Both the position numbers and the translations under genes were made by a program. Below are positions 31,546-49,107 of a DNA stretch of 64,000 bases, piece by piece. Below the pieces are notes generated by a model. The model was not told where the DNA came from. It saw nothing but the letters and a program-made list of their open reading frames with translations, and did not search any database. The DNA is from Alphaproteobacteria bacterium. GTDB taxonomy: Bacteria; Pseudomonadota; Alphaproteobacteria; UBA9219. Positions within the stretch are counted from its first letter, which is position 1, and each line of letters begins with the position of its first letter. Where the stretch lies: positions 3,469 to 67,468 of the forward strand of contig WRDR01000006.1 of NCBI GenBank assembly GCA_009779745.1, written 5' to 3'.

Positions 31546-32195
31546 ATAACAATCCGCCCTGTATCGGACGTTTTCGAGGGTATCAGTCTTTCGTCAAAAG
31601 TCCAGTACTTTTTCGCTTCTAAGAGCTCTTCCTGTACCCTTTCACCTTTAAGAAAAATAAGCATAGTGTCTTTATGTGAGATTTTGGAAGAATATTTGAA
31701 CAGCTCATTCATGGGCTTCAAGGCTCTTGCAGTTATAATGTCGTATTTTTTATTAACTATAGCCTCTATTCTATGGTTCCGGACTATTACGTTCAGATTG
31801 AGGGTTTTAACCATATGACTTAAAAAAAGAGCTTTTTTCTTGATGCTTTCTATAGCTTCTATTTTGATATTTGCGTTTTTCTGTTTTGCCAGAATTGCCA
31901 GTACTAAACTTGGAAAACCCGCCCCTGCCCCAAGGTCAGCTATGCTGACAACCTTCTCATTTTCCATTTTCCATTTTCCATTTTCCACTAAAAGAGGGTA
32001 TAGCTGTGCACTATCCAAAAAGTGCCTCTCGTATATATGCGGTATCGTGCCGCCGGAAACTAAATTCATTCTCTCATTCCAAGAGACGAGATTTTTCTCA
32101 AACTCTATAAAATCATTTATAGAAAATTCCTCTCCGGTAACTTCCGCCAGTCTTTTTTCAAATTCTTCTATTTCGTTCATTTTTTCGTTCACCAT
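31515..32195 (-). CDS. rsmG: 16S rRNA (guanine527-N7)-methyltransferase RsmG, carrying an in-frame heptamer-repeat insert
   Basis: SAM motif 'ADLGAGAGFPS'. The insert 'ENGKWKMENEK' is encoded by (TGGAAAA)x4. Confidence 0.8.
   Translation of the reverse strand: MVNEKMNEIEEFEKRLAEVTGEEFSINDFIEFEKNLVSWNERMNLVSGGTIPHIYERHFLDSAQLYPLLVENGKWKMENEKVVSIADLGAGAGFPSLVLAILAKQKNANIKIEAIESIKKKALFLSHMVKTLNLNVIVRNHRIEAIVNKKYDIITARALKPMNELFKYSSKISHKDTMLIFLKGERVQEELLEAKKYWTFDERLIPSKTSDTGRIVIIEKLRQAKF
31953..31987. repeat. (TTTTCCA)x4 plus one degenerate unit, in-frame inside rsmG
   Basis: Counted directly at 31960-31987. Confidence 0.85.
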
Positions 32196-32245
32196 GAAAC
32201 TTTATGAGTCAATTCAACAAGTTAACAAATGGTTAAAATCCTCCC

Positions 32246-34096
32246 TCATTCTACTTTCCTCTTTACAAATCTCAACAACGCCACTACAGCCGCCGGCGTC
32301 ATTCCCGGTATTCTCGAAGCAGCCCCTAGTGTTCTCGGCTTTATTTTACTAAGCTTTTGCTTCAATTCAGTAGACAAACTGCCGACCGCCTCTAAATCCA
32401 AATCCTCCGGCAAAACTAGGTTTTCATCTCTCTTAAAAGCCTTGATGTCCTGCTCCTGCCTGCTTACATAGCCCCTGTATTTAGCCTCTGTTTCTATCTG
32501 TTCTCTTATATCAACACCTATACTGGCAAGCTCCGGCCACTTATTCAACAACTGTTCGAATTCTATGTACGGGTATGACAATAAATCAAACGCAGACCTT
32601 ATAACTCCGTCCGAATTCACCTTTATCCCATGGGCTGTCAGCTTATTGGGCGAATCCTTGCACCTATCCGTTAAATCTCTGGCAGCAGCTAATTTATCCA
32701 TTTTCCCATAAAAAGCCCCTGCCCGCCTCTCACCTACACAGCCTATGCTTATTCCCTCTGGAGTCAGCCTTTTATCCGCATTATCAGAACGCATGGTCAG
32801 CCTATATTCCGCTCTGGAAGTAAACATTCTGTACGGATCTGTCACACCTTTTAAAATTAAATCATCTATCATTACTCCGATGTATCCCTGCGACCGGTCT
32901 ATTACTAATTCCCCTTTTCCCAGCACTCTAAGAGCTGCATTCAGCCCCGCCATTATTCCTTGAGCCGCAGCCTCTTCATATCCGGTTGTCCCATTAATCT
33001 GTCCGGCAAAATACAAATTTTCTACCGGTTTCGTCTCCAGAGTCGGCTTTAGCTCTCTGGGATCACAATAATCATATTCTATAGCATACCCGAATTGCTC
33101 TATTTTCACACTCTCCAGTCCGACAATACTATGTATAAACGCATCTTGGATTTCTATAGGCAAGGACGTAGATATTCCGTTCGGATACACTGTGCCGGTA
33201 TCCAGTCCCTCCGGCTCTAGGAATATCTGATGGCTCTTTTTATCGGCGAATCTTACTACTTTGTCCTCTATGGACGGACAGTACCGCGGACCTATGCTTT
33301 TTATCTGCCCCGAATACATAGGCGCAAGATGCAGATTGCTTTTTATAATCTCCAGCGCCTTATCCGTAGTTCTGGTTATCCCGCATTCTATTTGTTTATT
33401 GGTTATTTCTTTGGTCATAAAAGAAAAGACCGGAGGCGGATTATCTCCGGCCTGCATTTGAACTGCCTCCCAGTTAATGCTCTTTCCGTCCAGTCTTGCC
33501 GGAGTGCCGGTCTTGAGCCGCCCTAATACAAACCCGTGCTTTTCTAAGGAAAGGCTAAGTCCTTTGGACGGCGACTCCCCTATTCTGCCCCCCTCTTTTG
33601 TTTCCAGTCCCTGATGCAGGATTCCTCTTAAAAAAGTCCCTGTAGTAACAATTACTGTTTGAGAAAATATTTCTTCATTATTATCTGTTTTTACGCCTAT
33701 GGCCCTTCCTCCTTTGACCATAATTTCTTCAACAGAAGCCTGTTTAATGATTAGGTTTTCTTTCTCGCTTAGTATCTTTTTCACTGCCTTCTTATACAGT
33801 TTTCTGTCTTCCTGCGCTCTTATTCCCTGAACAGCAGGACCTTTGCTGCTGTTCAGCATTCTGAACTGAATGCCGCCCATATCCGCAGCCCTTCCCATTA
33901 GCCCGTCAAGCGCATCTATTTCTCTTACTAAATGCCCCTTCCCCAGCCCTCCTATGGCAGGATTACAGGACATTTCGCCAAGAGTCTCTGTTCTTTGAGT
34001 AATCAACAGGACGCTGACACCCATTCTGGCAACAGCGTATGCAGCCTCACACCCGGCGTGTCCCCCGCCTATAACTATTACTGAAAATTTTTCCAT
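32246..34096 (-). CDS. mnmG: tRNA uridine 5-carboxymethylaminomethyl modification enzyme MnmG (GidA)
   Basis: FAD-binding '[12 protein letters not shown]' in a 616 aa ORF. Confidence 0.95.
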
Positions 34097-34167
34097 CTTT
34101 CTTTTTTAAAAATTTTGTTTATGCTCTAATAAAATACAGCATGATTTATACAACGGGTGTTTAGGTT

Positions 34168-46998: not shown

Positions 46999-47823
46999 TT
47001 ATACCTTATGGTTAAGTTGCGTAGGCTTCAGTATACCGCCAATGCGCACAGGTTCAATAGAAACTGCTTTGCCTGTCGCATCGTCTGATATAATTAGTGC
47101 GCCGCAAACACTGGCCTCTCCTTTGGCCGGTTCGCGTTTTTCTATGGGAGGAGTTTTTTTCTCAAAACCCCACAAAGAAATTTCTTTTCTCATGCCGATG
47201 ACGCTGTCGTAATCTCCGCACATTCCGGCATCAGACATGTAAGCGGTACCGTTAGGCAGAATATGTTCATCAGCAGTAGGAATATGAGTATGAGTTCCGA
47301 TAACTGCAGTGACTCGCCCGTCCAAAGCATGACCCATAGCCATTTTCTCGGAAGTAGCCTCTCCGTGGAAATCTACGAATATTTGATAATCTCCGGACAG
47401 CGGGTGTTTTTCTAGGAATTTGCGCATAATCTCAAAAGGGTCGTTTAAAGGCTTACTCATAAGAATAGTTGCCATAATGTTTATTACCAGCAGTTTTTGC
47501 TTGTTTTTAAGAGCTATGAAGTGAAAGCCTTTCCCGGGAGTTCCTACAGGATAATTCAGAGGTCTGAGTACTCTGGGCTCTTTATCAATATGCCTGAGAA
47601 GTTCTGTCTGATCCCAAGCGTGGTTGCCCAGAGTAATGCAGTCTATGCCGGCATCGAACAAAGCGTCTGCTATTTTAACAGTCAGCCCGAACCCGCCCGC
47701 AGCATTTTCAGCGTTGATAATAGTAACGTCCGGAGACAGTTTTTCTTTTAATAACGGTAATTTTTGTATTACGGCATCTTTGCCTGCGCGGCCCACAACA
47801 TCACCTAAGAACAATATTCTCAT
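46999..47823 (-). CDS. YmdB-like metallophosphoesterase (TIGR00282 family)
   Basis: '[14 protein letters not shown]', '[10 protein letters not shown]' and '[10 protein letters not shown]' calcineurin-like motifs. Confidence 0.8.
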
Positions 47824-47837
47824 TTTGAATTTCCATT

Positions 47838-49094
47838 TTATAAGTCCAATCCGTCGAGATAGCCGGAGGTGCCTGTATGAGAGGTCTCGGTTACAATATC
47901 TTCATCTATAGCAGAGTTTTCATCTGATTGATACAGGTTTTCGTCAAATTCCGTATCGGATGCATGAGGATTATGGCAAAGTCCGTTTCCGAACATAACG
48001 GATACGGCGCAGTTGGAACCGTATAAGTTCAAGGCATTATTATTGCCCGCAACAAAATTAAAAACATGATTTGTATCGGAAAGCGCACCGTAAACAGAGC
48101 TTAAATACTTTTGATAATTGTCAGCCCTCTCAAATACGGAAGCTCCCTGCAGCATAGCCGCACAGCTTGAATCTGAAACAGGTTCTGCGCCTTTAGCTGT
48201 GATATAGGTTACGGCTCTGGTTCCGTAATTAACTCTGGCGGCGTTTTTGCCGGTTTTTCTTGCGTAAGTGTTCAGGTTATCCATTCCAAAAGGATAGTCG
48301 TTCATTTCTTTGCACTGAGCGGCATTGCCGGACGCTCCTTCTATAACGAGGCTGTTTTTGTATAGGTTGGGTCTGTAATCCGTGGGATAGACATAAGAAG
48401 AAGCTCCGAGTGCGAGAAAATGTATAGAAATTCCGTTTAATAAAGAATCTTCCGGAATGCTTGTGAACATTGCATAGCGTTGTACAAAGTTAGCCCCGAG
48501 ACCTCTGCCTGCAATGATTATAGTATTAAGATTGGGAAAAATGTCTTTTTGCGCTAAGAATAGAACCAGCTTGTCTGTGACATCGAAAGAGCTGATAGAG
48601 CTGCTGTTTCCCATATCCTGATTTATAAAATCCGTGCCGTCTTCATCGGAAAGCCTGCTCTGAGCATTGCTGTTTATAGACTGATTCCCGTATGCCCAAT
48701 CGGAAATATCCCATATTGCAAAATACTTTTTTTCTTCGGGCGATAAAATATCGAACTGCAATAAATCGGCAGGTATCATAAACTGAGGCGAGATAATAAG
48801 CGCGGAATTATTCAAAGAACCGGCGAATTCAGCCAAAAGCTGTTTTAGTGCGCCTGCATTTCTGGTTTCGTCCGGTATGGCGATAACGGCTCTGGTAATT
48901 TTAGAAAGATTGCTCTTATTAAAATCGTAATTGGACGCAACAGGGATAAGTTTAGGCTCTGTATACTCTTGAGCATTATCCGGCAATACCGGAAAAAACA
49001 TAGACACGTCTTGTGCTGCTGCAGGGGCAGGAGCAGCTAAGGAAACTATACTTACAAAGGTTAATACACACCAAATCCATTTTCCATTTTCCAT
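47838..49094 (-). CDS. secreted hypothetical protein. Start codon and 'MENGKW' are encoded by (TGGAAAA)n
   Basis: Signal peptide 'IWCVLTFVSIVSLAAPAPAAAQD' in a 418 aa ORF with no recognisable catalytic motif. Confidence 0.55.
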   Translation of the reverse strand: MENGKWIWCVLTFVSIVSLAAPAPAAAQDVSMFFPVLPDNAQEYTEPKLIPVASNYDFNKSNLSKITRAVIAIPDETRNAGALKQLLAEFAGSLNNSALIISPQFMIPADLLQFDILSPEEKKYFAIWDISDWAYGNQSINSNAQSRLSDEDGTDFINQDMGNSSSISSFDVTDKLVLFLAQKDIFPNLNTIIIAGRGLGANFVQRYAMFTSIPEDSLLNGISIHFLALGASSYVYPTDYRPNLYKNSLVIEGASGNAAQCKEMNDYPFGMDNLNTYARKTGKNAARVNYGTRAVTYITAKGAEPVSDSSCAAMLQGASVFERADNYQKYLSSVYGALSDTNHVFNFVAGNNNALNLYGSNCAVSVMFGNGLCHNPHASDTEFDENLYQSDENSAIDEDIVTETSHTGTSGYLDGLDL

Positions 49095-49107
49095 TTTCCA
49101 TTTTCCA
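49073..49107. repeat. (TTTTCCA)x4 plus one degenerate unit at the 5' end of the 47838-49094 gene
   Basis: Counted directly. Confidence 0.85.

Follow-up and report, generated by a model that had tools for sequence, protein, structure and literature searches.

Heptanucleotide tandem arrays were analysed in a 64,000-nucleotide stretch of DNA (hereafter, the window) from contig WRDR01000006.1 of assembly GCA_009779745.1, a metagenome-assembled genome (MAG) of an uncultured 'Alphaproteobacteria bacterium' whose closest RsmG relative is only 67% identical. Four perfect (TTTTCCA)n arrays lie on the plus strand of the window; the genes concerned are all on the minus strand, so that the sense-strand unit is TGGAAAA. 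Two of them appear to supply the start codon and the signal-peptide n-region of exported proteins, and a third forms an in-frame insert in rsmG. These arrays are one unit family of a genome-wide heptamer microsatellite phenomenon, and are not special to the genes that carry them. The account preferred here, with slightly better than even confidence, is that they represent a lineage-specific heptanucleotide microsatellite, born of slippage, tolerated, and co-opted at a few permissive coding positions.

The arrays were placed by Tandem Repeats Finder and by an exact-period scan, and the 14-mer made of two TTTTCCA units matches the plus strand 10 times, against 0.05 expected from shuffles. Read on the minus strand, a (TGGAAAA)4.3 array at 31958..31987 encodes ENGKWKMEN in frame within rsmG; a (TGGAAAA)2.4 array at 41349..41365, fused to a GTAGAAT-type unit, occupies the spacer between an autotransporter gene and dgkA, beginning 9 nt past the autotransporter stop and lying 81 nt upstream of dgkA; a (TGGAAAA)4.4 array with four ATGs (45679..45709) spans the start of a DUF1036 gene; and a (TGGAAAA)5 array with five ATGs (49076..49110) spans the start of a gene for a 418-aa protein. 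A sequence-only reading of the same DNA had reported these four sites and a fifth at the ispE stop codon; it had set the beginning of the rsmG array at 31953 instead of 31958, and had overlooked about 14 other 7-nt arrays with different units. The fifth site (44351..44360, minus strand) does place a TGGAAAA unit in the 'CEMEN*' end of IspE, as claimed, but amounts to 1.4 units, one unit with a degenerate neighbour (GTGTGAAATGGAAAATTAA), and is no array. At the matching position, the ortholog in L126 (sequences from other genomes are given L numbers) carries GAAATTTGAAAATAATAG. Single-unit seeds, TGGAAAATG, occur five times against about one expected, with the start of ispE (45214..45222, minus strand; GGGAATGGAAAATGAGT) and the start region of parB (30651..30659, minus strand) among them.

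The coding properties of the unit are unusual. TGGAAAA is free of stop codons in all six frames, and an ATG arises at every unit junction; heptamers that are both ATG-containing and stop-free on both strands make up 4.3% of all heptamers. This is why this unit, and not, for example, AACTCCT or GAGAGTT, sits in open reading frames (ORFs) at start codons. Translation of the arrays bore out the earlier statement that three units encode MENGKWK. The four arrays have no common flanking sequence, terminal repeats or target duplications, and no inverse partner was found within 300 nt of them, save for a weak 12-mer (at most 2 mismatches) at 49144-49155.

The case for start-codon supply is clearest for the DUF1036 gene (45228..45701, minus strand; Pfam PF06282), whose product carries the signal peptide MENGKWKITIVLAAVVFVMPVAAQA. 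The ATG at 45701 is the second of the four array ATGs and the sole one in the ORF frame. It is preceded, at 9 nt, by a Shine-Dalgarno (SD) sequence, AAGGAGG (45711..45717, minus strand), which overlaps the purA stop codon. The protein reads MENGKWK-ITIVLAAVVFVMPVAAQA-KLQFCNKT, and its AQA cleavage site aligns with those of orthologs, the n-regions of which are similarly long (MKISLKWF…, MNFKLTLL…). In L126 and L212, the DUF1036 orthologs lack the array and have N-termini of equal length.

The 418-aa exported protein (47838..49094, minus strand; signal peptide MENGKWIWCVLTFVSIVSLAAPAPAAA) follows the same pattern. Its ATG at 49094, the third of five and the one in the ORF frame, is the first ATG past an in-frame stop, and the array peptide leads without a gap to WIWCVLTFVSIVSLAAPAPAAA-QD; this segment lines up with signal peptides in related proteins. 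No SD was found near this ATG; the only GGAGG-like run upstream (about 49160-49175) lies over 50 nt away, where the sequence is reverse-complementary to the opening codons of the divergent comM. The sequence-only reading had both proteins starting inside arrays, which the two ATGs and the aligned cleavage sites support, and a GGAGG just upstream of each, which holds for the DUF1036 gene (45715-45711) and not for the 418-aa gene. Both ORFs pass directly into an h-region and an A-x-A cleavage site aligned with orthologs. As ORF structure and ortholog alignment agree, the comparison of sequences supports the in-array ATG as the only plausible start of the two exported proteins, and the array as the source of both their start codon and their n-region. 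RNA folding predicts the start arrays to be unpaired (z 0.05 for 45679-45709 and z -0.12 for 49076-49110), and a promoter scan near the arrays gave nothing above shuffles. Gene callers disagree on neighbouring starts, e.g., 289 versus 294 aa for ispE.

The 418-aa ORF has no Pfam match; the family to which it belongs is small, and signal peptides are conserved across it. The AlphaFold2 (AF2) model of the 418-aa protein (predicted template modelling score, pTM, 0.74) has an alpha/beta-hydrolase fold, with Foldseek matches, at E about 1e-9, to the poly(aspartate) hydrolase PahZ1 and the polyhydroxybutyrate (PHB)-depolymerase-like LpqC, the closest folds. Drawing on the family alignment, the model and the fold matches, all eight family members (8/8) show G196-x-G198-x-G200 at the expected GxSxG nucleophile elbow, with Gly replacing Ser; these proteins may lack catalytic activity or rely on a different nucleophile.

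The third coding array lies within rsmG (GidB family; 31515..32195, minus strand; Pfam PF02527, E 3.9e-37), which is intact, and whose S-adenosylmethionine (SAM)-binding motif DLGAGAGFP comes right after the insert. That this array is an in-frame insertion immediately before the motif, as first noticed from the sequence, is borne out by comparison: 57/61 homologs have 13 residues between the DSAQ helix and the D of DxGxGxG, whereas the window RsmG has 22 (Q64 to D87), i.e., 9 aa more, and the sister RsmG 19. The 6-aa insert of the latter (TGKELINKNA) falls at the same site and is non-repetitive in DNA. Alignment to Bacillus subtilis GidB (PDB 1XDZ) leaves an 8-residue gap at the insert. In the AF2 model, the fold is intact (mean predicted local distance difference test score, pLDDT, 94), and the insert block, its least confident part (pLDDT 75), forms a loop-like excursion ahead of strand β1. 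Cutting the array to one unit in silico yields LLVENEKVVSIADLG; today's allele thus corresponds to one copy with exactly three units added.

These arrays belong to a larger population. About 18 period-7 arrays occur in the window, with units including TACATTC, ACTCCAC, GGAGAGA, AACTCCT, TCCACAC and GTGAAAT; unit types are many and grade into one another. Period-7 runs number 10 in the 64 kb, against 0.94 in shuffles, with about 1 for each of periods 4, 5, 8 and 10. Among the relatives L125-L128 (14.3 kb), there are 7 period-7 runs and none at the other periods of 4-10. Background sequence from other bacteria (679 kb, from distant relatives found with PurA at no more than 66% identity among the matches listed, and serving as a control only) gave 1.7 period-7 runs per 64 kb, equal to periods 8-11, and a more distant relative of 52% GC had no period-7 runs beyond an A-rich one. 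No further heptamer arrays were found in 9.6 kb of genome past the window. Twelve of the 18 arrays fall in the non-coding 11.6% of the window (binomial P about 6e-8), and 6/18 end 0-20 nt from a start codon, with the SD absent from 4/6 of the genes concerned. The adjoining genes are mostly housekeeping ones (dnaG, pepP, a hexapeptide transferase, a kinase/pyrophosphorylase).

Several of the non-coding arrays are an expanded hairpin arm between genes or directly 3' of a stop codon. On the plus strand, (TACATTC)5.6 at 10631..10669 lies 11 nt upstream of the hexapeptide-transferase gene and has an inverse copy at 10609-10624; (TCCACAC)3.4 at 20834..20857 forms a hairpin with 20805-20821 directly past a stop codon (fold z -2.6); and (ACTCCAC)4.6 at 50828..50859, 20 nt upstream of dnaG, is a 3' hairpin arm, with its 5' arm at 50701-50724. 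On the minus strand, a degenerate (TACATTC)n array (16069..16118) ends 2 nt upstream of the aminopeptidase P start, where there is no SD. A further minus-strand array, (GGAGAGA)n at 62030..62068, is in frame in an aspartate-racemase gene (61619-62434), where it encodes GERREERGESERE; compared with PDB 1JFL, this is an insert of 12 residues, just ahead of strand KVGIMATDGT. The racemase is, thus, a second housekeeping enzyme with a heptamer-array insert.

The nearest relatives of this phenomenon are known from other lineages. Mazel and colleagues reportedly described, in 1990, the short tandemly repeated repetitive (STRR) heptamers of cyanobacteria, e.g., CCCCAGT, TTGGTCA and CAACAGT. These resemble the window arrays in comprising several heptamer units, tandem and dispersed in a restricted clade, and differ in unit sequence and phylum; to our knowledge, they have not been described as supplying start codons or signal-peptide residues. 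STRR heptamers have been used as a fingerprinting target (PMC5088731). The TAACTGA direct repeats of marine Beggiatoaceae, cyanobacteria and Bacteroidetes (MacGregor 2015, PMC4679880) come closest: 2-6 tandem 7-nt units occur genome-wide, overwhelmingly between genes, pointing to a start codon and ending a few nt from it, mostly with no recognizable ribosome-binding site (RBS), and a few lie at the periphery of coding sequences. Binding by a ribosome-associated or RNA-binding protein has been proposed for them (PMC4679880). They differ in having one dominant unit, with stop codons in all three forward frames, which is never read through, whereas the window holds many units, and TGGAAAA, stop-free in six frames and ATG-bearing, becomes ORF, in an alphaproteobacterial host. 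The window, likewise, has 7-nt units in 2-6 copies at many loci, enriched over other periods, mostly intergenic, near starts and often without an RBS. None of its units is TAACTGA or STRR1-3, which makes the arrays the same kind of feature and not members of those named families.

The in-array start recurs far from this clade. A genome scan found (TGGAAAA) arrays with at least 3 units at 119 loci or more, in many phyla; among the matches listed, which do not include the MAG studied here, about 21/122 arrays hold an ATG that begins an ORF 80 codons long or longer. In Pyrinomonadaceae or Acidobacteriota genomes, exported proteins begin with 'MENGKWKMEN…' followed by a signal peptide, with a GGAGG 7-9 nt upstream in several (about 9 nt in, e.g., L013 and L088). 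In-array starts were located in amidohydrolases (L013:2369, L088:2634 and L054), an M16 peptidase (L060:2704), a DsbD-N protein (L053:5706) and an exported protein (L064:286); the arrays at L013, L088, L064, L060 and L053 have 4-5 units. The three amidohydrolase orthologs (about 61-66% protein identity) carry 4, 5 and 4-degenerate units. L064 has the array and its L112 ortholog does not. Comparison of these sequences suggests that the in-array start architecture arose independently in Acidobacteriota, and that arrays were gained or lost between orthologs. Pyrinomonadaceae genomes hold many (TGGAAAA) arrays, plus other heptamers, e.g., (TTACTGC)3 in a signal peptide.

In some relatives, the start codon lies between complementary arrays. 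The L126 ortholog of the 418-aa gene has no array. In both L127 and L128, the start codon is flanked by an array on its upstream side and by the reverse complement of that array within the signal-peptide coding region, with the units GTGGAAA/TTTTCCAC-type TTTCCAC in L127 and GAGAGTT/TCAACTC in L128. Hairpins of roughly 30 bp are predicted over these starts (L127:585-730, -49.8 kcal/mol, z -7.3; L128:845-990, -46.7 kcal/mol, z -6.2; both on the minus strand). A third is predicted in L054 (585-730, minus strand; z -4.4), where an extra inverted (TTTTCCA)4 array encodes FSIFHFP in the h-region. Such inverted arrays might gate translation, serve as a substrate for inversion, or simply be tolerated. 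Sense TGGAAAA encodes K/E/N/G/W/M, suited to an n-region, and its antisense F/S/I/H/P, suited to an h-region; the code properties of the unit and its complement, therefore, give a simple reason for the tolerance of arrays in signal peptides.

The behaviour of the arrays under slippage was simulated. For the DUF1036 gene, any number of units from 3 upwards keeps an in-frame ATG and the unchanged N-terminus MENGKWKITIV…, while the SD gap becomes 2, 9 or 16 nt at 3, 4 or 5 units (9 nt at the native four). For the 418-aa gene, any number from 2 upwards keeps both the in-frame ATG and the N-terminus. Since every unit carries an ATG, start arrays stay in frame at almost any copy number, and the earlier expectation that ±7 nt would shift the frame or change N-terminal length does not hold at these two gene starts in simulation. 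They are, in silico, frame-buffered, and slippage there would at most alter translation efficiency. For rsmG, the proposal to ask whether the insert tolerates copy-number change was pursued in silico: 1, 4 and 7 units keep the frame, and all other numbers tested truncate the product at 74-89 aa. By these simulations, rsmG would be the only potential ON/OFF site, frameshifted by one unit more or less.

Actual copy numbers were compared in the six samples that contain the organism (ERZ27257304, ERZ27257295, JGI 3300010882, SRR10512951, SRR10512950 and SRR5215144). Unit numbers in the assemblies are identical in 6/6, which leaves the simple-sequence-repeat switching proposed at the outset unsupported. 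As the samples, all 99.97-100% identical to the window, are effectively one clone, judged from assemblies, this is weak evidence of array stability and a weak test of switching. Exact-protein look-ups for strain variants returned clonal copies only for PurA, RsmG, ParA and a histone-deacetylase-like protein and no matching record for MnmG, and no length variants appeared in protein clusters, judged from member counts. The sample and locus identifiers matched nothing in a literature search.

Taken together, the preferred account runs as follows. Slipped-strand mispairing would expand 7-nt-periodic seeds such as ATGGAAAATG, single-copy at the ispE and parB starts. A TGGAAAA array growing over the 5' end of a gene would become its start codon, with MENGKWK serving as n-region, as may have happened in the DUF1036 protein and the exported alpha/beta-hydrolase-fold protein. 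The rsmG array would have grown from one copy (VENEK) to four, and would survive, since it gained exactly three units, which add 7 aa to a surface loop. At gene starts, further slippage would affect nothing but the distance from SD to ATG and how many decoy ATGs lie out of frame, and a shift of 1 or 2 units would give a null allele in rsmG; six samples of one clone offer no evidence that unit changes occur at an appreciable rate. The absence of shared flanks, the single-copy seeds and the array-less DUF1036 orthologs fit in-situ expansion by slippage rather than insertion of an element. At the sequence level, a recent origin is supported by the lack of the array in both DUF1036 orthologs and by the non-repeat nature of the sister RsmG insert.

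Several points weigh against this account. The census covers the 64-kb window and about 10 kb beyond it, and both the slippage mechanism and the reason for the preference for 7 nt are inferred. The position of arrays is conserved more than pure neutrality predicts: the 418-aa gene has a 5' heptamer array in 3/4 lineages, with differing units, and the three Pyrinomonadaceae orthologs (about 61-66% identity) all start in (TGGAAAA)n. Furthermore, in 4/4 SD-bearing cases, the ATG at optimal distance from the SD is the in-frame one, which indicates selection on the array state.

One competing idea, a rather improbable one, is that the arrays are contingency loci, i.e., hypermutable repeats that reversibly switch or grade the two exported proteins and rsmG. 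They are perfect tandem simple sequence repeats (SSRs), lying at the 5' ends of exported-protein genes and within a dispensable gene, and so have the form expected of such loci, a repeat in a promoter, 5' untranslated or 5' coding region; Pyrinomonadaceae orthologs, moreover, differ in unit number (4 versus 5). In silico, losing or gaining one unit would move the DUF1036 SD gap from 9 to 2 or 16 nt, and rsmG keeps its frame at no unit number tested other than 1, 4 and 7; rsmG-OFF cells would lack 16S m7G527, a state said to give low-level streptomycin resistance. At the two start arrays, the one-unit ON/OFF frameshift seen in silico at rsmG is missing, as an in-frame ATG is always left. Repeats with alternative start codons in different frames are reportedly known from the (CAAT)n of Haemophilus influenzae lic1A, attributed to Weiser and colleagues in 1989; there, slippage combined with ATGs in several frames is said to give strong, weak or no translation, but the ATGs precede the repeat at fixed positions, and one of the frames is OFF, whereas here every unit has an ATG and no frame is OFF. 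Phase variation through heptanucleotide SSRs has been proven for neuO (PMC13001214) and for the hmw and TonB-dependent receptor genes of H. influenzae (PMC2651432). In neuO of the Escherichia coli K1 prophage CUS-3, (AAGACTC)n has 3-53 units, mostly 20, with heterogeneity within cultures and 66% OFF genotypes among genomes, and the protein is produced at full length only with unit numbers that preserve the frame (PMC13001214). The 7-nt unit in the 5' coding region, three of which equal 7 codons, follows the same arithmetic as the rsmG array; the neuO repeat, however, lies downstream of a fixed start and contains no ATG (PMC13001214), while the start arrays here hold the start codon, at 4-5 units with an ATG in each, and the rsmG insert is an internal loop and not a heptad domain behind a fixed upstream start. 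In H. influenzae, (TGAAAGA)n acts at promoter level upstream of hmw1A/hmw2A with 13-38 units and documented strain variation, and (AACAACC)n is found inside TonB-dependent receptor genes or 13 bp ahead of them (PMC2651432). These heptamers, too, lie near the 5' ends of exported or surface genes, with graded ('volume control') or ON/OFF effects (PMC2651432), but the window arrays have 4-5 units and keep the same copy number at every array in six samples. Although two of the array-linked genes encode exported proteins, rsmG, aspartate racemase, dnaG, pepP and other housekeeping genes are linked too, and most heptamer arrays of the window adjoin such genes (hexapeptide transferase and kinase/pyrophosphorylase included). 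ON/OFF switching at the two gene starts is mechanistically unlikely.

Selected cis-acting translation elements (unstructured A-rich initiation regions, protein binding sites, or start-gating hairpins with an inverted array) are given equally little credence. Such a role would fit the arrays ending 0-20 nt from a start codon, the four SD-less genes among those six, the predicted single-strandedness of the window arrays, the complementary arrays at starts in L127, L128 and L054, the architecture shared by L127 and L128 with different units, and the parallel with TAACTGA repeats, the closest published (PMC4679880). Units, however, differ by locus and lineage, and no single sequence-specific binder fits them; arrays also occur at 3' ends, within enzymes and in terminator-like hairpins; the DUF1036 orthologs do without any array; and the inverted pairs in signal peptides may be merely tolerated, given their K/E/N/G n-region and F/S/I/H/P h-region. 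CsrA-type binding to GGA motifs was considered and dropped, as several unit families lack GGA. A bolder form of selection, entertained only tentatively, would make (TGGAAAA)n a convergently recruited, self-framing and slippage-tunable start module for exported proteins, selected in unrelated phyla. With an AUG in each stop-free unit, the start would stay in frame and the n-region would contain Lys whatever the copy number; expression would be set by the copy number, via decoy AUGs and the distance between SD and AUG, and in some lineages pairing with an inverted (TTTTCCA)n encoding the hydrophobic core would place a tunable hairpin over the start codon; selection would keep the module in this alphaproteobacterial clade and in Pyrinomonadaceae. 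Footprints of small mobile or selfish elements (MITE-like, or similar to Rickettsia palindromic elements), inserted in frame and at gene ends, are very improbable. Long inverted repeats reach past the arrays in L127, L128 and at 50698-50847 of the window, an unrelated dispersed 21-nt palindrome exists in the genome, and both rsmG and the racemase gene have in-frame inserts, but the TGGAAAA arrays share neither conserved sequence around them nor defined ends, terminal repeats or target duplications, consist of pure tandem units in variable number, have single-unit seeds at other gene starts, and belong to a continuum of many intergrading unit types. Rickettsia palindromic elements, reportedly described by Ogata and colleagues in 2000 as inserted in frame in protein-coding genes, would resemble the arrays as repeats tolerated as in-frame loop inserts in alphaproteobacterial housekeeping proteins, and differ as dispersed palindromes of 100-150 bp with a conserved sequence, not 7-nt tandem units. 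An assembly or sequencing artefact would account for Logan contigs breaking exactly at arrays, yet is barely credible: independent ENA k141, JGI and Logan assemblies, at 99.97-100% identity, give the same unit numbers, the arrays are shorter than a read, and the breaks of L004, L214 and L215 are explained by 30-mers common to TGGAAAA arrays in a k=31 graph. The same shared 30-mers led us to reject Logan breaks at TGGAAAA arrays as a signal of polymorphism; this explanation covers TGGAAAA arrays only, and contig L210 ends at the (GGAGAGA)n array.

Other features of the window were recorded alongside. Pfam identified rsmG, mnmG, the autotransporter gene (41374-44100), ispE, the DUF1036 gene, purA, ymdB and comM, and in an Rfam search, tRNA-Leu was the sole RNA family matched. 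A composite hairpin at 50698-50847, between comM and dnaG, has arms of GGAGTGT/ACTCCAC units (-57.3 kcal/mol, z -7.5) and encloses a second stem-loop and the 21-nt palindrome CATTCCCGCGAAGGCGGGAAT. This palindrome is dispersed, with four intergenic copies (27435-27455, 31469-31489, 39141-39161 and 50756-50776) against 0 expected and a related copy on the sister contig L126, and is akin to small palindromic intergenic repeats known from other proteobacteria. Hairpins of heptamer-like units at 25010-25061, 7298-7336 and 44162-44197, one of them with a perfect 18-bp stem (TAATGTGAAATTTGAAAT / ATTTCAAATTTCACATTA), are probably terminators; two of the three separate convergent genes, and the other is located between tRNA-Leu and the autotransporter gene. 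Directly downstream of parAB lies a gene (28517-29728) whose product contains DotM_C, a domain of a type IVB secretion component, an order also kept in the distant relative L211. Near mnmG-rsmG-parAB, the AT-rich spacer 35400-35970, between a PAS-GGDEF gene and rho in a 34-36 kb block of 35% GC, contains tandem repeats of 9, 10, 11 and 22 nt; it is a candidate region for the replication origin.

The start-codon and insert readings are supported, and switching of genes on and off by these arrays is not. The arrays add an alphaproteobacterial clade to the few lineages that accumulate heptamer tandem arrays, such as heterocystous cyanobacteria and Beggiatoaceae. For this clade, arrays are an assembly hazard, since they break k=31 assemblies and contigs begin or end in them (L004, L210, L214 and L215), and an annotation hazard, since they mislead start-codon calling. 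If copy number were variable, the start arrays would constitute a translational volume control of a kind new to description. More broadly, the arrays offer a concrete route from microsatellite to coding sequence, in which a stop-free, ATG-bearing unit replaces the start codon and n-region of a gene, or expands a loop of an enzyme, and the 'MENGKWK…' starts of exported amidohydrolase, M16 peptidase and DsbD-N proteins in Acidobacteriota suggest a general rule on the repeats that can invade gene starts.

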